From the IMG/VR virus record IMGVR_UViG_3300029309_000040, positions 1-58,273 of that record: 58,273 nt of DNA. One strand, written 5' to 3'. Shown here in pieces: positions 1 to 58,273 of this stretch (the stretch's first letter is position 1; every line of letters starts with the position of its first letter). This stretch comes from a virus (Duplodnaviria > Caudoviricetes). Below the pieces are notes generated by a model. The model was not told the origin of the DNA and did not search any database. It saw only the letters and a program-made list of their open reading frames with translations. Made by a program: the position numbers and the translations under genes.

Positions 1-104
1 CGATCCTCAACCGCCATGCAAGACGCATCGCAGTGGCCTGTCGGTACGTATCACTTGATTGTGGTGTCTGACAATCGCATGTTCAAGCAAACCATCGTGA
101 AGCT
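1..104. repeat. Terminal direct repeat, left copy (circular assembly overlap)
   Basis: Identical to 58170-58273 except G99 vs T58268 (synonymous GTG/GTT in the wrapping ORF). Confidence 0.95.
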
Positions 105-108
105 ATGA
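1..108 (+). CDS. C-terminal end of the origin-spanning T9SS type A CTD protein starting at 55593
   Basis: Frame from position 1 reads RSSTAMQDASQWPVGTYHLIVVSDNRMFKQTIVKL-TGA(106-108); the stop overlaps the ATG at 105. Confidence 0.85.
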   Translation, partial: RSSTAMQDASQWPVGTYHLIVVSDNRMFKQTIVKL

Positions 109-1139
109 GACTCCTACTGGCTCTACTCCTGTGCATCCCGCTAGCGAGTGGGGCTCAGACACTAAAGAAGGCGTTTCGCTTCTCCACTTTTTACGCTGCT
201 GTCAACGGGAACAACTCCCTGTCTGACTACAATACGTACTCTGTACTTAGTGGTCCACTGCAAACAGATATTGTAGAGACCCCTTTCGACTATTCCCTTA
301 CCCTGGGGATACGAAAGATTGCTAGGTTCAAGTATGAGAACCGAGCCAATGTATTTTACAACGGTGAGGAGCACTCTTACTCTGATGCAGCTACAATCGG
401 TACGGTCAAAGGTTTTGAGTTCCTATTCGAAAGCGACTATCGCAGGCAGCAAGGGGTGCTGTACCTAGACCAGAACCACTTCCTCAGATACGTCGGGGGG
501 AGGTTCGTCGGGAAGGTAGAGTACGTCCAGGATGGTTTTGCTGACGTGAGCTACCTCGAGGCTTCGCAGAGGCTGCGCATCAACTCTAAGGGGAAGCTGT
601 CTTTCAATATAGGGGGGGCACAACGCATATCGGAACCATACGGTTATGATCCGCTCAAGCAGTGGGAGCTGCCTGACGAAAGTTTGCACTACACGCAGCT
701 TGCCTTGAGCGAGGGTTATAGCTATGACTTCGTTACAGGGGAGTACATGAACCCTGACGGGGATGTAGTAGCCAGCAGCTTCGATGTATGGCGAGAAGTT
801 GTCATCCCAAAAGTCCTTGACGATTATGTACAGCGCAAGCGAGGGGAGCTAAACACAGAGTGGAACTACTCTTTAGTAGTAGGGTTTGACTACTACCACT
901 ATACCAAAGACTTCTGGCTGCACTCTTGGGGGAATGTCTTGCCTCGACATTTAGATACGGGGTCAGAGTTTTCTTACTTCCAGCTCAACGGGGGGCAATG
1001 GGTGGATTATAGTGGGGGACTAATCTTCGGATGGAAGTTGAATAGGTCCTTCGGCTGGTTCCTAGAAGGACGATACAATAAGTACTGGAACAGGGAGTGG
1101 CACGACTTCTCGGTTGGGGTCAACTATGTAATATTCTGA
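105..1139 (+). CDS. Putative outer-membrane beta-barrel protein
   Basis: Signal peptide MRLLLALLLCIPLASGA|Q; aromatic-rich alternating beta strands; C-terminus SVGVNYVIF resembles a BAM beta-signal ending in Phe. Confidence 0.7.
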   Translation: MRLLLALLLCIPLASGAQTLKKAFRFSTFYAAVNGNNSLSDYNTYSVLSGPLQTDIVETPFDYSLTLGIRKIARFKYENRANVFYNGEEHSYSDAATIGTVKGFEFLFESDYRRQQGVLYLDQNHFLRYVGGRFVGKVEYVQDGFADVSYLEASQRLRINSKGKLSFNIGGAQRISEPYGYDPLKQWELPDESLHYTQLALSEGYSYDFVTGEYMNPDGDVVASSFDVWREVVIPKVLDDYVQRKRGELNTEWNYSLVVGFDYYHYTKDFWLHSWGNVLPRHLDTGSEFSYFQLNGGQWVDYSGGLIFGWKLNRSFGWFLEGRYNKYWNREWHDFSVGVNYVIF

Positions 1140-1140
1140 T

Positions 1141-1425
1141 ATGGCAAAGGAGATTAACGAGGATATGGGGTTCAACGTCAGCATTAAATCGCTGGCAGGG
1201 ATTGGAGTGGGGATGGCTTCTTTAATCGGGATGTGGTTTACCCTGCAGGCCGATATCGCTGAGGCTAAGATGCTCCCTGAGCCACTCCCCTCGGAGGTTT
1301 CCCGTATGGAGTTTGATATGAAAGACCAACTGATTCGTCAGACGATTATGTCTACTCAAGAGGATGTCGGGGAGATTAAAGAAGACATCAAGCGAATAGA
1401 AGAAAAGATTGATCAACTCAAGTAA
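1141..1425 (+). CDS. Single-pass membrane protein with C-terminal coiled coil
   Basis: Hydrophobic segment LAGIGVGMASLIGMWFTL followed by heptad-like EIKEDIKRIEEKIDQLK. Confidence 0.7.
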   Translation: MAKEINEDMGFNVSIKSLAGIGVGMASLIGMWFTLQADIAEAKMLPEPLPSEVSRMEFDMKDQLIRQTIMSTQEDVGEIKEDIKRIEEKIDQLK

Positions 1426-43428: not shown

Positions 43429-43847
43429 GACTCCAGTCTGTTGTAAAAGCGCTGTACCATCAGCCGCCCTTTCTGCGAAAGAGCATACCTCACCCTGTAG
43501 TTGTACTTCGTCTCTTCTCGAAAGAGGTGGTCCTCACGACACTCAGACAAGGTCTTCTTCTCGAAGTGCTTGTATAGATAACCTTCTCTAACCATAGGGT
43601 ATACAATCCTGTCGGCAAGCTTATCCTTGTACATACCGTAGTCTTTAGATGCAAAGTCTAGAGTCCAAAACTCTAAATCATAGCACCAAAGGAGGAAGTA
43701 TAGCTCCGTTTGATACAAGTCGTGTTGCTTCTGACACCATAACAGGTTCTCTCTCAGCCGCTTGAGGTGGTTCTTTTTTACGTATTTTTGAGGGAGAGGG
43801 GACATGTCCCGAAACATCCTCTTTTTACTTACAGTACTTCGCGGCAT
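43425..43847 (-). CDS. Winged-helix (MarR-like) regulator
   Basis: EGYLYK...RYALSQKGRLMV wing motif; the only minus-strand gene in the late arm. Confidence 0.55.
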   Translation of the reverse strand: MPRSTVSKKRMFRDMSPLPQKYVKKNHLKRLRENLLWCQKQHDLYQTELYFLLWCYDLEFWTLDFASKDYGMYKDKLADRIVYPMVREGYLYKHFEKKTLSECREDHLFREETKYNYRVRYALSQKGRLMVQRFYNRLES

Positions 43848-44593
43848 GAATAACAGAGAAAAGTTCTTGATGGAAGTTCAGAAGCTTCATGTCTTACTTG
43901 AGGCCATCACTCAAAAGTACGACATGGAGCATGAAGTGGTAAACATCATGCTGACGGGAATGCTCGATAGCGATGATATGGGGGAGCCAGTGCTCAAAGC
44001 TGTCTACAGTATGAACGTAGACAACGAAGAGCTGTTGATGGAGGCTCTAGATTTCTTGCACTTCTCTTACAGCGCTCCGATAGATTTGGATGAGGAGTTC
44101 TATTCTGAGACTTGGTACCTTCCTATTCTCGATGAATTAAACGATATTGACCCATCTCTGAACTGATGGGAGGGTTGATACGAAAGATTGTGATTGGGAG
44201 AGACCCGAAGGATGCCATGGCTTACTACGTTGGCATGCGTGCTGGTAGCGGTAAGGTAGCGGCCATAGTGCTTGACGAAGCCCACTTGCATCGCTATGGG
44301 AAGATGCGATATTTAGTCTATCTAGATATAGACGATGCACAGGTGCTATGGAAGGCCATCGACGATATGCCCTGTATACTTGAATACGATTTAAATTTTT
44401 AATTATGGAAGAAAACCTATACACTGCTGGGGGGGAGTTTAGGAAGCTAAACGGAGAGGAATACATAGGGCCATATCATGTACATCCAGAGTTCGGTGCT
44501 ATGATAGGACCGTACCACCTCCCCACCCCTCACGAAAGGTTGATTCCGATTACCAATCCTAGCTCGGATATGGTGAGAGCAAGCGGATACTAA
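43846..44593 (+). CDS. Three small hypothetical ORFs (43846-44166, 44166-44402, 44405-44593)
   Basis: Co-oriented, abutting ORFs. Confidence 0.55.
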
Positions 44594-45168
44594 TGAATAT
44601 GCTGTATTACTTCGTTGTGGAACTCCCAAAAAAGTTCCGTGACGAAATCGACTTCGCCGATACCACGCTGAAGATTGAGACCAAGTTCAACGAGTTTGAG
44701 CACAGAGTAAACGAAGGGGAGGTGAAGCACATCCCCTTGAAGTTTGATACCCCAGTAAAACCTGGGGACACGTTATATTTCCACCACAACGTAGTTATAA
44801 ACGGGGGGATGCCGTTTGCAGACTACAAAGACCACTATGTGGTAAGCTTCGACCCGAAGGTAGCTGTGAACAGCCACGCCTATGCCTACAAGCCCCAAGG
44901 AACAGACGAGCTCATCCCGCTAGAGGGGTGGAGCATATTACAGGAATCGTTTGAAAAGGAAGTAGAAGAGGCTATGTTCGAAGTCGTAGAGTTCAAAAAG
45001 AAGCCTCGAACTACGGGGGTAGTGGCCGCTATGAGCGATCAGATTGCAGAGCTCGGGTTGTCTGTGGGGGATACCGTCGGGTTCAAAGAGAACAGGGACT
45101 ACGAGTTCAAAGCCAACGATAAGGTTTACTTCCGTACCCGAGTAGAGGACTTGCTCTATGCCATCTAA
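44593..45168 (+). CDS. Tandem GroES-like co-chaperonin
   Basis: GEVKHIP..VKPGDTLYF and TGVVAAM..LSVGDTVGF, two GroES-like repeats. Confidence 0.65.
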   Translation: MNMLYYFVVELPKKFRDEIDFADTTLKIETKFNEFEHRVNEGEVKHIPLKFDTPVKPGDTLYFHHNVVINGGMPFADYKDHYVVSFDPKVAVNSHAYAYKPQGTDELIPLEGWSILQESFEKEVEEAMFEVVEFKKKPRTTGVVAAMSDQIAELGLSVGDTVGFKENRDYEFKANDKVYFRTRVEDLLYAI

Positions 45169-45451
45169 GAAGTTTACTACGCTGGATGCAGCGAAGCGGT
45201 TGATGGGGAGCATGGAGGTCGCCATAGACAATATGATTGAGGAGATTAAGAAGCCTGTAGACTCCGAAGTGAACGGGAGCGCGAGGAAGGCGGAGTTGCA
45301 ATCCATCAAGCAGACAGCCGTAGATTGCAAAGAGCTTTTGGTTGAAAGACAGAAGTTGGAGCAGATGATGAAGGACCTTACTTTGGGGGGCGAAGTCTCT
45401 GAGGGTAAAGACTACACTGGGGGGTTCGCAGAAAAATTCAGTAAGAAATAG
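45158..45451 (+). CDS. Terminase small subunit
   Basis: Helical 97 aa upstream of TerL; C-terminal GFAEKFSK. Confidence 0.55.
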   Translation: MPSKKFTTLDAAKRLMGSMEVAIDNMIEEIKKPVDSEVNGSARKAELQSIKQTAVDCKELLVERQKLEQMMKDLTLGGEVSEGKDYTGGFAEKFSKK

Positions 45452-45453
45452 TT

Positions 45454-46785
45454 ATGCGGATATGTAAAGTATTCCTAATACTACTTTGGGTTACCTCTCC
45501 ACTGTACTCGCAGTGTGACTTAGAGATACTCGATGTAGACCTAATCGAGGGTAGCGTAACGATTGCATTCAACAACACGGAGAACTGCGGGGGGACGGCA
45601 GGTCCATACGGGGTATCTGAAATCCAGTTTGGGTTCCAAGCTTTAGATAGCGATTGCAACGCAATGAATCAGGGGTGGGACTTTCCCTCTGGATTCTCTA
45701 TATCTGATGATTCTAGTCACCCAGGCTGGTTGTACTCGGCTACGACTATGGAGTCCATTAATAACTGGACCAACCTTTATGATGAGCTGATAGATCCCCC
45801 ATACTATACTGGAGATACAGTAGAGTTTCCGTTGTACAACCCCTATCAAAACGATTGCGTAGATGGTCCTTTCGCAGCTCAACTGTACTGTAACCTTGAA
45901 GGGGGGATAGACTATTGGTTGAGCTTAGACCTCAGCGTACAAGTCGTGATTTGGCAGATAAGTTATGGTCCCACTATGTATGCCGAAGACGGGGGTTGGG
46001 CAGAGGTAGGCATCAACGGGGATGGCACTTCTACGGGCAATGGAGTATATGACGACGAAAACTGGGTGGACAACTGGGTGGTAGTGGGCCCCTGCGGAGA
46101 CCCCCTCCCAGAGGTTATCGTAGACACCGTTTACATTGAGCTTCCCCCAGATACTGTCATCGTGGTAGAGTACGATACAATACCAATACCTATCAATTGG
46201 TACTTCTACGACACGACCTATATATACGTCTCTGACACGCTCTATCTAACTGAGTATCTTACAGATACAATCTACGAGACTGAGTATGTATATGATACAA
46301 CCTGGGTGGATAACTATATATACGACACAACCTATGTGTATATACTTGACACCATACTATCCACAGACTACGTTTATGACACCACCTATGTATACCTGCT
46401 GGACACCCTACACGAGTACATAGTGCAAGAGCTGTGGTTGGATTGCGATACAGGTCTCCCGTGTGACGACCAGCCAGGGGTTGACGATTGCGAAGAGATG
46501 GTGGTGTTTGTACCTAACGTATTTACCCCAAACAACGATGGGGTAAACGATAGTTTCTATGCCCAGCAATCTGACCCTAGCTGTTGGAATGATTGGACTA
46601 TGACCATATACAACAGGTGGGGTAGGGTAGTTTTTCAAACCGACGACCCAGAATACGGTTGGGACGGGAGCTACAACGGCGGGGGTCACTACGTTCCTGA
46701 CGGCGTGTATGCTTGGGTGATTAAGGCCAGCTCGTACTCTGGCAGGGCCATAGGTATAGAGGGGACAGTACAGATTTTTAGATGA
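45454..46785 (+). CDS. Secreted protein with T9SS type B (gliding-motility-associated) C-terminal sorting domain
   Basis: Signal ..SPLYS|Q; VFVPNVFTPNNDGVNDSF..IYNRWG..VF..WDG..PDGVY..GTVQIFR. Confidence 0.9.
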   Translation: MRICKVFLILLWVTSPLYSQCDLEILDVDLIEGSVTIAFNNTENCGGTAGPYGVSEIQFGFQALDSDCNAMNQGWDFPSGFSISDDSSHPGWLYSATTMESINNWTNLYDELIDPPYYTGDTVEFPLYNPYQNDCVDGPFAAQLYCNLEGGIDYWLSLDLSVQVVIWQISYGPTMYAEDGGWAEVGINGDGTSTGNGVYDDENWVDNWVVVGPCGDPLPEVIVDTVYIELPPDTVIVVEYDTIPIPINWYFYDTTYIYVSDTLYLTEYLTDTIYETEYVYDTTWVDNYIYDTTYVYILDTILSTDYVYDTTYVYLLDTLHEYIVQELWLDCDTGLPCDDQPGVDDCEEMVVFVPNVFTPNNDGVNDSFYAQQSDPSCWNDWTMTIYNRWGRVVFQTDDPEYGWDGSYNGGGHYVPDGVYAWVIKASSYSGRAIGIEGTVQIFR

Positions 46786-48905
46786 GCGTTTTAGTTGATG
46801 TCAAAGGCTATGAAGAGAAAGCAGTGGCGATATGTCCCAACGGCACGCATGGTGACCACATCGAAATCGGTGGCATTCTCATTGTCCTTCCAAAGCCCCC
46901 TAAAGTCAAAGACATCCTCTACCAGAATCTACCCATCAAGGATCAGCACTGGCGGAGAGCTGATCTACCCAAAGAGATATCGCGTATTCGTTCTATGGAT
47001 GAGTGGGCGGAGATGCCTCGGGAGTTTCGAGAAAAGTTTCGTCCATATATCGAAGAAGAATTTCGCCGTAGGCGTGAGGGCGTTTGGTTTTATAACCGAG
47101 GTGACGCTACATACATCACGGGGCGTCACTACATGATGCTGCAGTGGTCGGTGCTAGACATCGGCCACCCCTACTACCTTGATTTCCAAAGGGATATATT
47201 CTTACATTTGGCTGCGTGTGAGGCGGACCCTCGTTGTATTGGACAGTTATATACCAAGTGCCGTAGATCAGGATATACAAACATATGTTCCTCAGTCATA
47301 GTTGACGAAGCTACCCAAGTAAAAGACAAGCTGCTGGGGATACAGAGCAAGACAGGTAAAGACGCACAGGAGAATATCTTCATGAAGAAGGTGGTCACTA
47401 TGTTCCGCAAGTACCCATTCTTCTTCAAGCCTATCCAAGACGGCACCACCAACCCCCGTATGGAGCTAGCTTTCCGTGAGCCTTCAAAAAAGATTACGAA
47501 GAACAACAAGACAGCTACAGTGGGGGACGCCTTGAATACGGTCATCAACTGGAAGAACACCACGAACAACGCCTACGACGGAGAGAAACTACACTTGCTG
47601 TATCTAGACGAAGCGGGGAAATGGGAAAAACCCACCGACATAAGGGAGGCTTGGAGGATTCAGAGGACCTGTTTGATCGTAGGAAGAAAAATCGTGGGGA
47701 AGGCTATGGTCGGAAGCACCGTAAACCCCATGGCAAAAGGGGGGAGCGAGTACAAAGATTTATGGGGGGACTCGGACCCGCAGGAGAGGAACAAGAATGG
47801 GAGGACTAGGTCGGGTCTTTACAGGCTGTTTATCCCTGCTTACGAATCCCTAGAGGGCTTCTTCGATGTTTATGGGAGGGCTATAATAGAAGACCCAGAG
47901 CAACACGTAGAGGGCATCGATGGGGAGTACGTTCATATGGGGGCCAAGACGTTCTTGAAGAACGAAAGGGAGAGCCTAAAGCACGACGCCTCGGAGCTAA
48001 ACGAAACCATTCGCCAGTTCCCGTTTACCACTGATGAAGCCTTCCGAGATAGTATCGATGGGAGCCTGTTTAATATCGGTCAGATATACGAGCAAGTAGA
48101 GCACAACGACAACCTATTTCCAAACCCCGTAGTTACGGGGCAGTTCACTTGGAAAGGTGGGGTAGAGGATACTGAAGTTATCTTTACACCAGATCCCAAA
48201 GGGAGGTTCAAGGTAGCTTGGATGCCCCCAGTAGAACTCCGAAACAAGAAGGCTCATGACCGAACGAAGAGAATCGCTCCTCACCCTCACCTTGGTTGTG
48301 GCGGGGTGGATAGCTACGATCTCGATGCTACTGTGGATGGGCGCGGATCCAAGGGTGCGCTACATCTGTACAACAAGTTCAATATGGAAGTACCTGCTAA
48401 CATGTTTGTTCTTGAGTACGCTTCCCGTCCGCCTTTGGCTTCGATATTTTATGAAGACGTGCTTATGGCGGCGGTCTTCTACGGGTACCCCATTTTGATA
48501 GAGAACAACAAGTACGGGATAGCTAGGTACTTTGAGCAGCGCGGATATGATGGGTACTTGATGGATAGACCGAAGCACCTGATGAGCACCAGCGCGAAGG
48601 TCAACGTGAAGACCAAAGGGATACCATCTAACTCTGTCGATGTAATCCAATCTCACGCCCAAGCTATAGAGGCTTACGTCCACGATCACGTAGGCATCAA
48701 CAGGGAGACTGGGGAGGTGGGGAGTATGTATTTCAACCGCACCCTAGAGGATTGGATTGGTTATGACATCAGCAACAGAACCAAGTTTGACTTGACCATC
48801 AGCTCTGGTTTGGCTTTGCTAGCGGCACAGAAAGTGAAGGTGAAAAAGAAAGAGTCGAACTTCAATGAGAAGCGCTTCTTCAGGCGGTATAAGGTGAGGG
48901 GTTGA
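46782..48905 (+). CDS. terL: Terminase large subunit
   Basis: KCRRSGYT Walker A, YLDEAGK Walker B, GGVDSYD nuclease, IENN and KFDLTISSG. Confidence 0.9.
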   Translation: MSVLVDVKGYEEKAVAICPNGTHGDHIEIGGILIVLPKPPKVKDILYQNLPIKDQHWRRADLPKEISRIRSMDEWAEMPREFREKFRPYIEEEFRRRREGVWFYNRGDATYITGRHYMMLQWSVLDIGHPYYLDFQRDIFLHLAACEADPRCIGQLYTKCRRSGYTNICSSVIVDEATQVKDKLLGIQSKTGKDAQENIFMKKVVTMFRKYPFFFKPIQDGTTNPRMELAFREPSKKITKNNKTATVGDALNTVINWKNTTNNAYDGEKLHLLYLDEAGKWEKPTDIREAWRIQRTCLIVGRKIVGKAMVGSTVNPMAKGGSEYKDLWGDSDPQERNKNGRTRSGLYRLFIPAYESLEGFFDVYGRAIIEDPEQHVEGIDGEYVHMGAKTFLKNERESLKHDASELNETIRQFPFTTDEAFRDSIDGSLFNIGQIYEQVEHNDNLFPNPVVTGQFTWKGGVEDTEVIFTPDPKGRFKVAWMPPVELRNKKAHDRTKRIAPHPHLGCGGVDSYDLDATVDGRGSKGALHLYNKFNMEVPANMFVLEYASRPPLASIFYEDVLMAAVFYGYPILIENNKYGIARYFEQRGYDGYLMDRPKHLMSTSAKVNVKTKGIPSNSVDVIQSHAQAIEAYVHDHVGINRETGEVGSMYFNRTLEDWIGYDISNRTKFDLTISSGLALLAAQKVKVKKKESNFNEKRFFRRYKVRG

Positions 48906-48942
48906 TTTATTATATTTGTGGGTAATAATTACTTGACCCCAC

Positions 48943-51378
48943 ATGTATAACAATAAGAGTGACCAGTCAGGTGGTTTCCCCGATCCCTTGGCCCCATACG
49001 AGGAGAAAATCTCCAAGGAGTATGGGTTGAGGTACGCCAAGGCCATAGAGGGCCAGTGGGGGAGCACGGACAGCACATCTTCAACTTACGGGGGTAGGAA
49101 GAATATTTTTGCTCGCAATAGGGACTACGCTAACGGAACACAAGATACGAGCATATACAAGCAGCTCTTAAATGCTCTAGACCCAAACAATGGGGACGGG
49201 AGTCTGATGAACTTAGATTTCACGTCTGTCCCTATCCTACCTAAGTTCGTTCGTGTCGTAGTCAATAAGATTCTCTCTCGCAACCCATACCCCAACCTTG
49301 AGGCGGTAGATCCGCTCTCCTCTTCGGAGAAGAACCGAGAGAAGAACAGGATTAAAAACCAGATTAAGTTGCGCCCACAGCTACAGAAGCTGAAGGAACT
49401 AACAGGAGAGGTGTTGGTGGGGGAAGACCCCGACACCCTCCCAGAAACTATCGAGGAGGCAGAAATCTTGATGGATACCAACATCAAGACTGACGCAGAG
49501 ATTGCAGCCCAGGTAGCCACGGATATGACTTTGTCTTGGAATAATTTCGAAGACAATACTTTCCGTCGCTGCGTAAACGACCTCGCAGCCTTGGGTATGA
49601 GCGTGGTCAAGCGCACAAACGACAGCAACTACGGGATTCGGGTGGAGTATGTAGACCCAGTCAACTTCGTACACAGCTACACTGACGACCCCAACCTCGA
49701 CGACATAGTATACGCGGGTTGCGTCCGAGAGATACCTTTGCAAGAGCTAAAGCGCTTGGCGGGGGACCAGCTTACAGAACAAGACTTGCAGAAGATTACG
49801 AAGAACGCCAAGCGAGCTTCTTCTAACAGGTCTATGAAAGCCCCCTACTACCCTTCTAAAATTGACAAGAGTCAGTACGGGGGGTATACAGTGGAGGTCT
49901 TGGACTTTGAGTTCAAGTCTGTAGACTGCATGCACTTCGAAGAAAAGCAAAACCGCTTTGGCAATACGGGGTTCTTCTTCGAGGGGATGAAGTACAAGGA
50001 GCGTACAGGTAGTGTATACGAGCGCACCCCACATAAAATGGAGGTGGAGACGGTGTACTCAGGTATGTACATCCTCGGTACCGACCACATCTTGAACTAC
50101 GGTAGGACCGCGAACGTACCTAAAAACATCCACGATATCTCTCGTGCCAAGCTTTCTTTCTCTGCTGTAGCGGTCAACCTCAACGACCAACTGCCTAAGT
50201 CTATGGTGGATAGCTGCGTCGGCTTTGCCGATATGCTACAGCTCACCCACTTGAAGCTCCAGCAAGCTATCGCTAAAGCCAAGCCAGATGGGTTGGTAAT
50301 CGATATCGAAGGGTTGGAGAACGTACAGCTCGGGAAGGGTGGGGAGTTGCAGCCTTTGGAGCTCCACGATATCTACGAGCAGACGGGGGTGTTCTACTAT
50401 CGCAGTAAGAACCCAGAGGGGGGATTCCAGAATCCGCCAGTACGAGAGATTGGGAACAGCATCCGCAACATCAATGAGTTGATTGCGCTGTACAACCACT
50501 ACTTGCGTATGATTCGCGATACCACTGGGATTAACGAAGCGGTCGATGCTTCTACACCGAAGAGCGACGCCCTAGTGGGTGTTCGGGAGCAAGCCATCGC
50601 AGCGAGCAACAACGCCACTTACGACGTCACCAATGCAGCCATGGTGTTGTACAAGAAGGTTTGTCAAGACGTAGTGAAGTGCTTGCAAATCCTCCCCCCA
50701 GAGTCAGTCATCTTCAAAGCGTATGAGAACGCCATCGGCGAAACCAATATGGGGGTGCTGTCTTCTTTCAGCGACCTTCCGATGTACAACTTCGGGGTGC
50801 AAGTGCAGCGAGAGATGGAGGATAAGGATAGGGTGTATTTGGAGCAGAACATCCAAATCGCTTTGTCACAGAAAGAGCTAGACCTAGAAGACGCTATGGC
50901 GGTGCGTGCTATGAAAGACGTAAACCAAGCCGAGCAACTTCTTATGGTACGGCGCAAGAAGCGCATGAAGAAGCAGCAAGAAATCGCTATGCAGAACTCG
51001 CAGATGCAATCTCAGCAGGCGCAGCAAGCGGCTTTAGTTGCTTCACAAGCCAAGCAGCAAGAGATGCAGATGACGGCGCAGCTCGATGCACAGAAGATTC
51101 AGCTCGAAACCGAAGCAGAGATTGCTATCGCGAAGGTGAAGCACGAGATGCAGAAAGAGATTGAGCAGTTGCGCATTATGAATCGCAGTGCCGAGAAGGG
51201 GGCGGATCAGATGGCCCGTTCGCAGATAGAGAAGCAAAAGGACGATAGGAAAGACGAGCGCGTCAAGAAGCAAGCTATAGAGCAGAGCAAGCTCATAGCG
51301 CAGCGCAAAGGGGAGAGAGGAACTTTAGAGGAGCAAGTGGGGGCTGGATTTGATATTTCACAACTACTACAAGGATGA
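48943..51378 (+). CDS. Portal protein
   Basis: 811 aa after TerL; PILPKFV, IRDTTGINE, Q-rich C-terminal coil; TATATTTG at 48911. Confidence 0.85.
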   Translation: MYNNKSDQSGGFPDPLAPYEEKISKEYGLRYAKAIEGQWGSTDSTSSTYGGRKNIFARNRDYANGTQDTSIYKQLLNALDPNNGDGSLMNLDFTSVPILPKFVRVVVNKILSRNPYPNLEAVDPLSSSEKNREKNRIKNQIKLRPQLQKLKELTGEVLVGEDPDTLPETIEEAEILMDTNIKTDAEIAAQVATDMTLSWNNFEDNTFRRCVNDLAALGMSVVKRTNDSNYGIRVEYVDPVNFVHSYTDDPNLDDIVYAGCVREIPLQELKRLAGDQLTEQDLQKITKNAKRASSNRSMKAPYYPSKIDKSQYGGYTVEVLDFEFKSVDCMHFEEKQNRFGNTGFFFEGMKYKERTGSVYERTPHKMEVETVYSGMYILGTDHILNYGRTANVPKNIHDISRAKLSFSAVAVNLNDQLPKSMVDSCVGFADMLQLTHLKLQQAIAKAKPDGLVIDIEGLENVQLGKGGELQPLELHDIYEQTGVFYYRSKNPEGGFQNPPVREIGNSIRNINELIALYNHYLRMIRDTTGINEAVDASTPKSDALVGVREQAIAASNNATYDVTNAAMVLYKKVCQDVVKCLQILPPESVIFKAYENAIGETNMGVLSSFSDLPMYNFGVQVQREMEDKDRVYLEQNIQIALSQKELDLEDAMAVRAMKDVNQAEQLLMVRRKKRMKKQQEIAMQNSQMQSQQAQQAALVASQAKQQEMQMTAQLDAQKIQLETEAEIAIAKVKHEMQKEIEQLRIMNRSAEKGADQMARSQIEKQKDDRKDERVKKQAIEQSKLIAQRKGERGTLEEQVGAGFDISQLLQG

Positions 51379-55592: not shown

Positions 55593-58273
55593 ATGGCAAA
55601 CGATCGTGTGCGGAAACGAGTAGCTCGGCTATTAAAAAAGCACGGGCTCAAAGGCGTGAATAAGCCGAAGCGAACACCGCAGCACCCCAAAAAGTCACAT
55701 ATAGTATTAGCTAAAGAAGGGGATAAAGTAAAGCTGATACGCTACGGCGAGCAAGGGGCTAGCACAGCAGGGAAACCGAAAGCAGGGGAGAGCGCACGGA
55801 TGAAGGCCAAGCGCAAAAGCTTCAAGGCCCGACACCGACGCAACATAGCCAAGGGGAAGATGAGTGCTGCATACTGGGCCAATAAAACTAAATGGTTCTT
55901 GCTCCTCCCCATTTTGTCTCTGCAGGCGCAAAGCTGGGTAAACGTAAACTTCGTTTCTGATCAGTACGCTGACGAAAGCTCATGGGAGATACTGTCTGAC
56001 ACCAACGTTGTCGCTTCGGGGGTGGCAGAAGAAGTTCTAGTAACCCTACCCCCTGGACAGTATACGTTCGTAGCATACGATGAGTTTGGTGACGGGATAT
56101 GCTGCCAATACGGGGAGGGGTTCTTTACCCTAACTAACGGATGTGGGCTAGACATAGGGGTGTATGACTTCGCCTCTGCTCAAATGGAAATCCCGTTTAA
56201 CCTGCTCCCTTGCCCCCCACCAGTTGTTGGGTGCATGGATGAAGAGGCCAGCAATTACGACCCCTTGGCCGTTATTGATGACTACTGTCTTTACAGCGTA
56301 AGGTTTCGGCTAGACTTAAACGGGCCACACCCAGAAGGTATCGTAACACCAGAGGTGAACACAAGCTGGTATGGGTGGTGCGGTAGCTGCAATCAAATGC
56401 AAGACCTAGACGGGGACGGGATATGGGAGGTTACCATTGACTTCCCGCTAGGCGATTACCTATGGAAGTTTTCAGCAGATGATTGGGGGTATCAAGAAAT
56501 GCCAGCGGGAGTTCTAAACTCCCCGTGTTTTCTGTTTGATGAATGGGGGTTCGTAAACAGACCCTTAAACGTAGAGGGATCGCTGACCCTCCCTACCTTC
56601 TGTTGGGAGAGCTGCTTCCCTTGCGGTTCTATAGTTGGGTGTACTGACTCCACCGCCACAAACTACAACCCTTGGGCCAACTTCAATCAGGGGTGCAACG
56701 TAGTCGAGTCAGCTAATTGCGACATCACGCAAACAGAGGTTTCTGTAACTGTCATCCCCGACAACTACCCAGCAGAAACCAGTTGGGGCTTGGTGGACCT
56801 GACTTTAGGCGGGGTTATAGCCTCGATTAATACAGGGGACCTGTCTGGAGCCCCTGTGGGGATACCCCTCGTAACAAACACCTGCGTATCTATAGGGAGT
56901 GAAATACAAATCCTTGTGTTGGATTCGTATGGTGACGGAATGAATGGGTCTCAGTGGGGTGGCGAAGACGGGACGGTGATAGTAGAGGCTTGTGGTGAAG
57001 AAATCTGGTCACTCCCATCAGAAAACATAAACTTCGGTTACAGTTTAGAAGCTTCTTTCCCTGCCCCTGTATGCCAAACCATAGAGGATTTGGTGGGGTG
57101 TGGGGACCCAGATTACCTAGAGTACAACCCCGACGCCACGGTGTTTCTTGATTTGCTCTGCGAAACTCCAGTCGTATACGGATGTATAGACACGGCGTAT
57201 TATAACTACAGCCCAGAGGCTAACGTAGAGCAGCAGCCAGACTCTTGTTTTTACACGCTAACCCTTACTGACGGCGTTGGTGATGGATGGTTTGGTAGTT
57301 GGATTGGAGTAAAGCAAGGGGAGTGGATTTCCCCGCAGTACCAAATGGGGCCAGCAGATGGGGTGGAAGAAAGCTTTGAGCTATACCTCCCTTCTGACGA
57401 AGAGGTAGAGCTGTTCTTCTTCTCCACGCCGCAGTCTTTGTTTACTGTGGCTCAGTGCGGATTTATACTTGAGGGCCCAACGGGGGACACGCTCATTGAC
57501 GTGCCTCAGTGGAATATCATCCCCTTCCCATACACATACACAGCGACGACATACTGCGGCAACCTTTGCGAAGAGTATGTCTATGGGTGTATGGATACGA
57601 CGGCACAAAACTATGTCGCACTAGCCAACACCGCTGACAGCAGTTGCTACTATGCCGCTGGCTGCATGCAGGCTGGATATCTAGAGTACTACACTCAAGG
57701 GTATGAAGCAGATTATGATGATGGCTCTTGTTTAACGTTGGCTGTGTTTGGGTGCACAGAACCGACTGCGCTGAACTTTGATGAGGGGGCCAACGTGGAC
57801 AACGGTAGCTGCATCCCCGTGGTGGTGGGGTGTATGGATGTATCAGCTTACAACTACAGCGTCGAGGCTAATACCGAAGGGGAGTGCCTGTATGACGCAG
57901 GCTGCGCTACAGGTGCAGGCGTCCCATACTGGCTTAACGATTCTTGCTACGGGTGGGTGATTGAGGTGGACCCCTACTGCTGTGAAGCGGAGTGGGACGG
58001 GGGGTGTATCGGACTGTACGATTACTGTCAGCAGGGCTGGCCTACGGGTGTCACTGAATTAGCAGAGGAGGTTACTATCCGCCCGACGGTTGTAGAGCGT
58101 CATTTCTATGTGGACTCCCCATACCCGTTTGTGTTGACTGTCTTCGATGCTACAGGGAGGGAGGTGCTACGATCCTCAACCGCCATGCAAGACGCATCGC
58201 AGTGGCCTGTCGGTACGTATCACTTGATTGTGGTGTCTGACAATCGCATGTTCAAGCAAACCATCGTTAAGCT
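55593..58273 (+). CDS. 894-aa origin-spanning protein: basic N-domain, signal peptide, Cys-rich repeats, CBM48-like domain, T9SS type A CTD
   Basis: Translated by hand, open from ATG 55593 through the origin to TGA 106-108; eight GCx(D/E/Q) repeats; DLDGDGIWEVTIDFPLGDYLWKF; VFDATGREV..WPVGTYHLIV..QTIVKL. Confidence 0.85.
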   Translation, partial: MANDRVRKRVARLLKKHGLKGVNKPKRTPQHPKKSHIVLAKEGDKVKLIRYGEQGASTAGKPKAGESARMKAKRKSFKARHRRNIAKGKMSAAYWANKTKWFLLLPILSLQAQSWVNVNFVSDQYADESSWEILSDTNVVASGVAEEVLVTLPPGQYTFVAYDEFGDGICCQYGEGFFTLTNGCGLDIGVYDFASAQMEIPFNLLPCPPPVVGCMDEEASNYDPLAVIDDYCLYSVRFRLDLNGPHPEGIVTPEVNTSWYGWCGSCNQMQDLDGDGIWEVTIDFPLGDYLWKFSADDWGYQEMPAGVLNSPCFLFDEWGFVNRPLNVEGSLTLPTFCWESCFPCGSIVGCTDSTATNYNPWANFNQGCNVVESANCDITQTEVSVTVIPDNYPAETSWGLVDLTLGGVIASINTGDLSGAPVGIPLVTNTCVSIGSEIQILVLDSYGDGMNGSQWGGEDGTVIVEACGEEIWSLPSENINFGYSLEASFPAPVCQTIEDLVGCGDPDYLEYNPDATVFLDLLCETPVVYGCIDTAYYNYSPEANVEQQPDSCFYTLTLTDGVGDGWFGSWIGVKQGEWISPQYQMGPADGVEESFELYLPSDEEVELFFFSTPQSLFTVAQCGFILEGPTGDTLIDVPQWNIIPFPYTYTATTYCGNLCEEYVYGCMDTTAQNYVALANTADSSCYYAAGCMQAGYLEYYTQGYEADYDDGSCLTLAVFGCTEPTALNFDEGANVDNGSCIPVVVGCMDVSAYNYSVEANTEGECLYDAGCATGAGVPYWLNDSCYGWVIEVDPYCCEAEWDGGCIGLYDYCQQGWPTGVTELAEEVTIRPTVVERHFYVDSPYPFVLTVFDATGREVLRSSTAMQDASQWPVGTYHLIVVSDNRMFKQTIVK
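58170..58273. repeat. Terminal direct repeat, right copy
   Basis: Matches 1-104 with one mismatch. Confidence 0.95.

Follow-up and report, generated by a model that had tools for sequence, protein, structure and literature searches.

SprB of Flavobacterium johnsoniae and PG1035 of Porphyromonas gingivalis are the described proteins closest to the one considered here, with which they share a Sec signal, a C-terminal domain (CTD) of type B for the T9SS, a beta-sandwich and a repetitive spacer. In those parts of PMC9143113 that treat the type B route, such cargo binds cognate PorP-like proteins and remains at the cell surface, and PorP/SprF is described as a 14-stranded barrel of the FadL type. 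A phage comparison is offered by 'Cryophage' (Bellas et al. 2020, PMC7468147), likewise a phage of a Bacteroidota-type host with variable cargo genes that are labelled as T9SS-dependent; in the sections of that paper that concern them, these cargo proteins are type A (PorV/PorU, covalent A-LPS anchoring) with enzyme or PA14 heads, and the authors suggest effects on inter-strain competition or superinfection.

Our locus lies in a window of 58,273 nucleotides, by which we mean the whole stretch of DNA analysed, from a marine phage of Bacteroidota. The 443-aa protein described below differs from SprB and PG1035 in being encoded by a phage, in having no adjacent PorP/SprF-like gene, in its position in what is most likely a late packaging operon and in a head of no described family; it differs from the Cryophage cargo in being type B, with an anchoring that would be PorP-like and non-covalent. 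The T5 protein Llp is an envelope protein made by the phage; by blocking the receptor, it keeps progeny from being lost to infected cells or debris. The logic that we propose for the present protein, whose function we infer, would be the same, but the two have no relation in sequence or structure, and Llp depends on lipoprotein sorting rather than on the T9SS. Finally, full-length relatives exist in uncultured marine viruses (UniProt A0A516LPX6 and A0A7S9STS8, Virus NIOZ-UU157); where the models align, they are 41% and 30% identical, with Foldseek E-values of 8e-39 and 3e-25, respectively. Both are automatically annotated as 'Gliding motility-associated C-terminal domain-containing protein', and we found no literature discussing either. 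The phage protein is also compact, at 443 aa vs 669 kDa for SprB (a size taken from the portion of PMC9143113 on that protein).

The gene and its setting upstream of terL

43783..43790, + strand: TATTTTTG, Bacteroidota-type element that may be the promoter of the unit 43804..48905
45158..45451, + strand: 97-aa helical ORF (orf97), conserved at a mean of 80% identity per column in 12 relatives
45454..46785, + strand: type B cargo gene, 443-aa ORF
46782..48905, + strand: TerL (phrog_6681, E 2.4e-206, aa 10-704)

A sequence-only reading of this DNA had placed the 443-aa ORF 2 nt after the stop of the upstream ORF and in overlap with the TerL start, and the coordinates agree: orf97 ends with TAG at 45449-45451, TT follows, the ATG stands at 45454, and the TGA (46783-46785) and the ATG of TerL (46782-46784) overlap as ATGA. 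These junctions are no assembly artefact. Independent contigs bridge both of them: those of run X1 span the two (45358-45659 and 46625-47058) without a single difference, the first is also spanned in run X3 (45290-45542), in X5, from another study, a 14.6-kb contig runs from the ORF into TerL, and both junctions are identical in two IMG/VR contigs (L005 and L006). Because the junctions recur in this way, because there are 845 homologs at E<=1e-3 (with PF13585 in 120 of the 120 listed) and because dN/dS is 0.08-0.13 against five close relatives, in every domain, we conclude from these comparisons that 45454..46785 is a real and selected gene. Its dS is above that of TerL (0.13 vs 0.03, 0.54 vs 0.31 and 0.63 vs 0.26), which suggests exchange of alleles. 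The GC content is without anomaly across the gene, no tRNAs were found, and a megablast of 44000-49000 gave 0 matches.

TerL itself is 41-49% identical to the annotated TerL of Elemovirus and of MW202828 (the ORF had 0 matches to Pfam and NCBIfam models), and the portal gene was confirmed via phrog_6547. The label 'TerS', which the sequence-only reading had given to orf97, found no support: no family in NCBIfam, Pfam or PHROG was above threshold, the top PHROG match of its 12 relatives was a family of unknown function (E-value 0.0076), a profile search of the PDB did not find TerS, and tblastn against MW202828 and the Elemovirus loci, including the stretch before TerL, gave 0 matches, so that it is position alone that suggests TerS.

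The insertion as such, also proposed by that reading, is well illustrated by the relatives. Of 80 related loci, 67 have orf97 upstream of TerL, with an interval between the two that varies from 2 to 3439 nt. A census of the 67 TerL-related loci that contain the whole interval gave 9 with the type B cargo gene, 2 with another type B cargo and 56 with neither; one of the loci (L198) has only the 2 nt, and elsewhere the occupants include genes for a 2OG-Fe(II) oxygenase, capsule synthesis and MazG. By this comparison the stretch between orf97 and terL is a hotspot for accessory genes. No gene of the type B cargo kind precedes TerL in MW202828 or in the Elemovirus record. Conversely, in 23 of the 37 IMG/VR loci with a cargo homolog, the homolog lies upstream of a TerL that is 71-99% identical; 7 loci belong to two other phage backbones and 7 are uninformative.

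Full-length homologs were not found in GenBank/INPHARED phages, where two matches concern the CTD alone. In bacterial contigs the best 80 of 573 matches cover only the C-terminal part, from query residue 265 at the earliest, and the closest CTD among them is 37% identical. The head was found in one of 401 sampled genomes from the order of the Flavobacteriales-titled MAG G001. This copy (in G097) lies at a contig end with housekeeping-type genes alongside, and its nearest relatives include phage copies (for example P0076, on a 64,998-base contig); it may be a cellular gene or a prophage edge.

As for expression, TAnnTTTG is a Bacteroidota-type promoter motif. It has 23 plus-strand matches, and 10 ORF starts have one within about 35 nt upstream; the scan as a whole gave 37 matches vs 27.9 expected, a number that 5 of 100 shuffles reached (mild enrichment). 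None lies between 44089 and 45453, the flanking plus-strand matches being at 44081 and 47203, and since the cargo gene lacks a motif of its own, its co-expression with terL, as the earlier reading would have it, is plausible. There is a terminator-like hairpin at 43756-43772; sigma-70 and terminator scans remained at chance level. Going by the motif scan, the cargo gene most likely shares its transcript with the packaging genes, and hence would be made late.

Architecture of the 443-aa protein

45454..45510, + strand: signal peptide, aa 1-19; signal peptidase I is predicted to cut before Q20
45511..46098, + strand: head, aa 20-215, conserved, Cys/Trp-rich, beta-rich
46099..46488, + strand: stalk, aa 216-345, D/T/Y-rich repeats with DT each 8-12 residues, and a Cys-containing neck after
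46489..46785, + strand: T9SS type B CTD, aa 346-443 and stop codon (TIGR04131, PF13585)

The order of domains is thus a signal peptide, a 196-aa head, a variable stalk of DT repeats and the CTD. The N-terminus, MRICKVFLILLWVTSPLYS followed after the predicted cleavage by QCD, has a basic n-region, and a hydrophobic core is present in 53/53 homologs with an intact N-terminus (alignment A1). In the same alignment all 54 homologs have Q at +1 of the predicted cleavage site and A, S or G at -1 (30, 13 and 11 times). Judged from these features it is a Sec-type signal peptide with Q-rule cleavage, as had been claimed. We also considered a lipoprotein. Q directly before Cys21 does not suit a lipobox, and in 54/54 homologs it is Q, not G/A/S, that stands there; we reject this reading.

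The CTD exceeds the cut-offs of two curated models. TIGR04131 gives 45.6 bits (cut-off 35, E 5.6e-12, aa 353-424; 50.2 bits in a six-frame search) and PF13585 (CHU_C) 66.7 bits (cut-off 27, aa 352-426 of 443), and by these HMMs the protein is a T9SS type B cargo, in agreement with the claim that prompted the TIGR04131 search. AF2 models it as a beta-sandwich (pLDDT 70-91 for aa 350-443) that matches the NucA CTD in the T9SS complex (8glk_D, VIA) with Z 8.4 and rmsd 2.0 over 73 residues. Further T9SS matches are PorU (Z 8.0), PorZ (Z 7.9), the mirolase CTD (7.5) and RgpB; those to PorU, PorZ and RgpB presumably concern type A or T9SS-component domains, and generic Ig/PKD/Fn3-like domains match the model at similar Z (5xyr 9.7, PKD about 7).

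The head is conserved but of no known family. Invariant residues include Q20, C21, D22, C45, C68, H89, W92, W155, W167, W182 and C214; over the protein as a whole Cys21/45/68/214/331/337 are invariant and Cys377 is kept in at least 90% of homologs (all in A1), a conservation of cysteines that suits an exported protein and would allow disulfides in the head. Its dN/dS is 0.05-0.13, and the AF2 pLDDT is about 60-90 across aa 22-170. Searches of the head against Pfam, NCBIfam, PHROG and PADLOC gave 0 matches, a profile of A1 gave 0 against PDB sequences at E<=1, and the ESM Atlas, queried with aa 20-220, gave top scores of 0.75, under the usable level; the structure searches used the whole model, and the CTD filled their matches. 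A phmmer search against 1.84 billion representatives found 22 matches, ten of which were scanned with Pfam: eight (at least 432 aa) carry CHU_C alone, and for two short ones (202 and 243 aa) the scan was empty. The stalk, for its part, contains 12 DT motifs in 130 aa vs one elsewhere in the protein, ranges from 78 to 210 aa in 54 homologs and has a pLDDT below 50 over aa 221-329. The repeat is seen at the protein level only (Tandem Repeats Finder detected 0 arrays in the cargo gene).

PorP/SprF and the barrel at 105..1139

The absence of an adjacent PorP/SprF gene, noted in the sequence-only reading, extends to the whole window: a six-frame search with PF11751 is empty at E<=1, and a custom PorP HMM finds 0 there and 0 in 37 viral loci. 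The accompanying premise, that such a gene is usually adjacent, fared less well: among 79 bacterial loci chosen as the best type B CTD matches, only 9 had a PorP-like ORF in a locus of up to 6 kb either side. Together with the 7-15 PorP_SprF genes per genome in three Flavobacteriales, these counts make a host PorP-like anchor plausible. A phage cargo without its own PorP would then have to mimic the CTD of a host cargo, and it speaks against this that the best bacterial CTD match is only 37% identical.

The same reading had named the barrel at 105..1139 as another possible partner.

105..1139, + strand: outer-membrane beta-barrel, 344 aa, signal peptide ending in SGA with cleavage before QT, C-terminus NYVIF
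55860..58273, + strand: large secreted protein, rich in Cys and ending in a type A-like CTD, crossing the window ends, stop at 106-108

It is indeed an outer-membrane barrel, but it shows no sequence similarity to PorP/SprF. The AF2 model (pLDDT 72.7) has 12 long strands by DSSP, and Foldseek against the PDB gave 110 matches at E<=0.001, all of those listed being beta-barrel membrane proteins. The best ones (VIA) are EstA (Z 14.9), KdgM (14.8), NanC (14.5) and Tsx (14.1), which we take to be 12-stranded, while FadL and TodX reach 7.6 and 7.5, and no PorV/PorP chain is among the 50 matches listed. There were 0 matches to Pfam at E<=0.001, to PF11751 at E<=1 (six frames) or to NCBIfam at E<=1, and hhalign against 20 PorP/SprF sequences gave a probability of 9%, over the signal peptide only (the barrel alignment is of low diversity, Neff 1.85). 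A complex prediction of barrel aa 18-344 (A3) with CTD aa 328-443 (A1) scored 0.01 against a mark of 0.32, and weighs neither way.

The barrel gene shares a cassette with the type A-like cargo gene and with genes for a small membrane protein and for a thioredoxin-like protein of the periplasm. The window ends overlap each other, and the stop of the type A-like cargo overlaps the ATG of the barrel. The tail of this cargo (58101..58271) gives 23.1 bits with TIGR04183 (cut-off 23), hence a borderline match (17.8 bits in a hmmscan of the window-truncated ORF), and a signal-peptide-like stretch follows Met90 in the ORF starting at 55593. The idea that the phage uses both T9SS routes thus gains a second, borderline cargo. 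PADLOC had 0 matches for the type B cargo, the barrel, the type A-like cargo, orf97 and two small ORFs of the cassette.

A probably displayed protein and its alternatives

We think it likely that the product is a cell-surface protein of phage origin, exported by the secretion machinery of the host, with a binding head, a host PorP-like anchor and, as its likely role, the masking of a receptor. Since the tail is a T9SS surface-display signal, the phage probably redecorates the surface of the infected cell; our assumption of a T9SS in the host comes from the CTD and the Flavobacteriales-like relatives. After Sec export, the CTD would carry the cargo through the host SprA/Sov translocon, as in known type B cargo (Gorasia 2022), and, uncleaved, would hold it on the outer membrane through a host PorP/SprF-like barrel, again as in known type B cargo. 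The gene itself is accessory (a 'moron'), occupies a hypervariable slot and would be made late with the packaging genes. From architecture and composition our guess for the head is a lectin- or adhesin-like binding module, held off the membrane by the stalk, which once displayed would alter what the surface of the infected cell binds. Its likeliest use would be to mask or occupy the receptor of the phage itself, or surface structures that depend on the T9SS, so that progeny and competing phages are not wasted on infected cells and debris; alternatively, it may make infected cells stick to particles or neighbouring cells. We infer either role, masking or adhesion, from this layout. According to PMC12781566, when flavobacteria resist dsDNA phages, the resistance typically maps to genes of the T9SS and of gliding. 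One could go further and imagine a T9SS-based takeover of the surface by phages of marine Flavobacteriia, in which the CTD mimics that of a host adhesin and occupies its PorP/SprF-like anchor late, the head is displayed, the receptor structure is removed or masked, and the cassette, with a barrel of a new 12-stranded family, provides a second, phage-owned route, the outcome being exclusion and the prevention of re-adsorption; in this extended form we find the proposal rather doubtful.

Other explanations have to be weighed. Slightly more doubtful still, in our opinion, is that the barrel at 105..1139 is a new, non-PorP barrel that binds the CTD and serves as the phage's own anchor, independent of the specificity of host PorP-like proteins. 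It has a signal peptide and ends in Phe, its barrel model is confident, and in a sample of 12 records (including the window, G000) it accompanies the cargo family in G000, G403, G404 and G406 (77-100% complete) among the seven records that have this family, and a different type B cargo in G412 (98% complete); moreover, in G406 and G412 the type B cargo is convergent to the cassette, with two small cassette genes between cargo and barrel. Yet the barrel went undetected in G405 and G407 (73% and 65% complete, respectively), both with the cargo family, and is present in near-complete relatives without any type B CTD (G410, 100%; G411, 96%). Its start overlaps the stop of the type A-like cargo (ATGA) in the window, G406 and G412, and is never coupled to the type B gene; its family is also the larger one (3576 vs 845 matches). 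The lack of a PF11751 match, the alignment with PorP/SprF confined to the signal peptide, and best folds that are 12-stranded (Z 14-15, vs 7.6 for FadL, the class of PorV/PorP) point the same way.

We regard it as unlikely, and a shade more so, that, once secreted by the T9SS, the protein is released from the cell, soluble or on vesicles, its head being an extracellular enzyme or a decoy acting, for instance, on capsule or exopolysaccharide. Release of T9SS cargo into the medium is possible according to the relevant part of PMC9143113, and the slot and neighbouring cassette hold other genes related to surfaces or polysaccharides (Capsule_synth, with an M15 peptidase nearby). One invariant His, invariant Asp residues and a nearly invariant Glu184 in the head could suit an enzyme, but no enzyme family in Pfam, NCBIfam or PHROG matches. 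A head, a length-variable stalk and an anchor are, in general, the layout of displayed proteins. As for the anchor, the type B CTDs studied so far remain attached via PorP-like proteins, in the account that PMC9143113 gives of them. Very improbable, finally, is a virion or assembly protein that is no secretion substrate and whose C-terminal beta-sandwich would be an Ig-like decoration resembling CHU_C. The gene does lie in the packaging and structural module, and the CTD model is equally near to generic Ig/PKD/Fn3-like domains; however, a signal peptide with its cleavage-site pattern in every homolog is unfit for assembly of virions in the cytoplasm, the evidence goes beyond the fold to sequence HMMs above curated cut-offs, a gene missing from 56/67 related phages is not a core structural gene, and one related copy (G097) is on a bacterial contig next to housekeeping-type genes.

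Coming back to the reading that we prefer, a protein displayed through a host anchor, sorting of type B cargo is thought to need cargo-specific PorP/SprF-like partners, and the code of this specificity is a question. A compact, abundant and variable phage cargo that comes without its own partner would be a probe for which PorP-like protein accepts it and which residues of the CTD decide. It would also extend the published use of the T9SS by phages from type A to type B, with non-covalent anchoring, and it indicates that a widespread group of phages of marine Flavobacteriia may carry surface remodelling as an accessory trait; in flavobacteria, it is usually T9SS and gliding structures that decide whether a cell is susceptible to phages.

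The type B cargo and its place before terL

The type B sorting domain of the cargo protein is, on profile evidence, real, as the sequence-only reading had proposed: TIGR04131 scores 45.6 bits (cut-off 35) and PF13585 (CHU_C) 66.7 bits (cut-off 27), both within residues 352-426 of 443. An AlphaFold2 model built on 54 homologs (mean pLDDT 61.5) is confident over residues 350-443 (pLDDT 70-91), and this predicted C-terminal sorting domain (CTD) resembles the NucA CTD in a T9SS (type IX secretion system) complex (Z 8.4, rmsd 2.0, 73 residues), PorU (Z 8.0), PorZ (Z 7.9), the mirolase CTD (Z 7.5) and the CTDs of RemZ, FspA and RemA (Z 7.2-7.3). Generic Ig/PKD-like domains reach about the same Z, so the modelled fold agrees with the type B family without proving it.

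A phage T9SS cargo with a type A domain was published in 2020, and is termed a unique occurrence in passages of that paper (PMC7468147); relatives of the present protein stand under automatic names in UniProt, those of Virus NIOZ-UU157 being one example. Among CC-licensed PubMed Central papers and bioRxiv, we found no literature on type B cargo in phages. A phage T9SS cargo of type B is therefore a new variation on a known theme.

Features of the cargo region
44593..45168, GroES-like protein, 191 aa (phrog_13932; Cpn10 domain at residues 135-188)
45158..45451, orf97, the 97-aa ORF upstream of the cargo gene
45454..46785, plus strand, type B cargo open reading frame, 443 aa: head (residues 20-215), stalk (216-345), CTD (346-443)
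46782..48905, terminase large subunit, TerL (phrog_6681, E 2.4e-206), followed by the portal gene (phrog_6547)

The orf97 stop (TAG, 45449-45451) is followed by two bases and then the cargo ATG at 45454, and the cargo TGA overlaps the terL ATG (ATGA, 46782-46785); the claimed placement is thus exact, and sequencing-run contigs confirm both junctions. In two runs (X4, X5) a naturally occurring variant has about 300 additional bases separating orf97 from the cargo gene (window 45444/45449-45498), matching a 93-aa ORF present in the related loci L004, L007 and L012. The name TerS formerly given to orf97 is suggested by position alone: no TerS family or structure matched it, and tblastn gave no match in MW202828 or the Elemovirus loci, the stretch before their TerL included. 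Its mean column identity is 80% (12 relatives). The GroES-like gene preceding it is conserved across the clade.

By its sequence the cargo is a protein for export, addressed to the T9SS and laid out as head, stalk and anchor. The proposed Sec signal with Q-rule cleavage held throughout the alignment, Q directly following the predicted site and A, S or G occupying position -1 in 54/54 homologs; a lipoprotein (lipobox) reading was rejected, the Q preceding Cys21 arguing against it. The head has invariant cysteines at 21, 45, 68 and 214, an invariant His89, and several invariant Trp, Asp and Gly residues. Its beta-rich model includes one helix (pLDDT about 60-90 across residues 22-170) and leaves unmodelled residues 171-201, the head's most conserved loop, and the stalk, which is D/T/Y-rich with DT each 8-12 residues and ranges from 78 to 210 aa among the aligned homologs. 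The head matched nothing in Pfam, NCBIfam, PHROG or PADLOC, and phmmer, run exhaustively against 1.84 billion representatives, returned 22 proteins only; when ten of these were scanned with Pfam, all eight of at least 432 aa had CHU_C alone and the other two, of 202 and 243 aa, gave no match.

A selected gene in a variable slot

The cargo is a selected, widespread phage gene occupying a variable slot. The whole protein has 845 matches at E<=1e-3, many full-length at 45-86% identity and on contigs up to phage size, one being on a Tara Oceans scaffold labelled '<-0.22'. Against five close relatives dN/dS is 0.08-0.13, low across all domains. The cargo dS exceeds that of TerL (0.13 vs 0.03, 0.54 vs 0.31 and 0.63 vs 0.26), which suggests allele exchange at this gene. 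Homologs occur in 37 IMG/VR loci: in 23 the gene precedes a TerL of 71-99% identity, in 7 it belongs to two other phage backbones, and the last 7 loci are uninformative.

Among the best 80 TerL relatives, which are not an unbiased sample, 67 have orf97 and the whole orf97-terL interval; this holds the cargo gene in 9, a type B CTD with no match to the cargo head in 2, and neither in 56. The interval is as short as 2 nt in L198 and reaches 3439 nt in the longest case. Other genes in the slot (at L008:6019-6636, L015:1005-2743, L039:128-460 and L004:3842-4123, for example) encode 2OG-Fe(II) oxygenases, a capsule-polysaccharide-synthesis protein and MazG, and there are small ORFs too, among them a recurrent one of 93-101 aa. 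A type B cargo with a different head occupies the same slot at L039:913-1695, and relative G412 (L226:1638-2573) encodes a 311-aa type B cargo that keeps the mature start QCD(I/L)E(I/L)L; these differing bodies suggest that heads are exchanged modularly on one CTD. Sampling 401 genomes from the order to which G001, a MAG titled Flavobacteriales, belongs gave a single head match, at a bacterial contig end (L123, G097:C47, 17988-19431; 57% identity over residues 3-156). The ORFs before it look like housekeeping genes by eye from their N-terminal sequences, and the match may belong to the cell or mark the edge of a prophage.

The anchor of the cargo and the barrel cassette

According to PMC9143113, the partners of type B cargo are PorP/SprF-like barrels, each believed to be specific for its cargo. 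The sequence-only reading held that such a gene is usually adjacent; adjacency proved the exception, 9 of 79 bacterial type B loci having a PorP-like gene nearby. Since there is no PorP_SprF gene in the window or in 37 related viral loci, adjacency is rare, and three Flavobacteriales genomes carry 7, 14 and 15 such genes, a host PorP-like protein is the simplest reading of the anchor.

The minority reading makes the ORF at 105..1139 a phage-owned partner. That it encodes an outer-membrane barrel, as had been proposed, is borne out by its model (pLDDT 72.7) and by 110 Foldseek matches in the PDB at E<=0.001, those listed being all beta-barrel membrane proteins; and a type B cargo gene convergent to the barrel cassette in G406 and G412 keeps the idea of partnership alive. 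However, the barrel has no PorP_SprF similarity, and its modelled fold appears nearer EstA, KdgM, NanC and Tsx (Z 14-15), which we take to be 12-stranded barrels, than FadL (Z 7.6). The barrel gene begins across the stop codon of a gene for a large, Cys-rich protein whose tail is a borderline type A match, and it occurs in the near-complete relatives G410 and G411 without any type B CTD.

The conserved four-gene cassette
55593..58273 + 1..108, type A-like cargo, large and secreted, 39 Cys in 893 aa
105..1139, outer-membrane barrel
1141..1425, 94-aa membrane protein with a hydrophobic segment
1434..1799, thioredoxin-like protein with a signal peptide and no CxxC motif

The order is the same in G406 (L038), G411 (L227) and G412 (L226). 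The record of 58,273 bases has an estimated completeness of 94%, and bases 1-104 repeat as 58170-58273 with one mismatch; the genome is therefore effectively closed, circular or terminally redundant though classed linear, and a single ORF spans the junction, with its stop at 106-108. The first 100 or so residues of that ORF (55593..55900) match phrog_7595; the corresponding stretch is a separate 94-aa gene in G411, and in the window it is in frame with the type A-like cargo. The signal-peptide-like stretch of that cargo follows Met90 (55860), which may reflect a gene fusion or initiation inside the ORF.

Expression and possible role

The motif TAnnTTTG, which we take to be the Bacteroidota -7 promoter motif, looks like a promoter element of this phage. 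Often as TATATTTG, it lies 12-35 nt 5' of many plus-strand gene starts (examples: 2879, 7956, 9238, 10157, 18002, 42415, 43783, 48911, 55132, 55581), and 10 ORF starts have one of its 23 plus-strand matches within about 35 nt upstream. Overall enrichment is mild, 37 matches vs 27.9 expected, a number reached by 5 of 100 shuffles. The site at 43783 precedes the ORF at 43804 and that at 48911 the portal gene; none lies on the plus strand from 44089 to 45453, the nearest being at 44081 and 47203. We infer one transcription unit, 43804..48905, with the GroES-like gene, orf97, the cargo gene and terL.

By TerL, the relatives are uncultured podoviruses, Flavobacterium 'elemo' phages (41% identity) and Cellulophaga phages. 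The phage is probably lytic, which fits the absence of any integrase family among 56 ORFs scanned against Pfam, and it probably makes the cargo alongside its packaging genes. Adhesion of infected cells would be an alternative role. The role we favour is that the cargo would mask or replace T9SS-dependent surface receptors, because flavobacteria that resist dsDNA phages typically owe this to changes mapping to T9SS and gliding genes, according to PMC12781566. Such masking or replacement would lead to exclusion and prevent re-adsorption.
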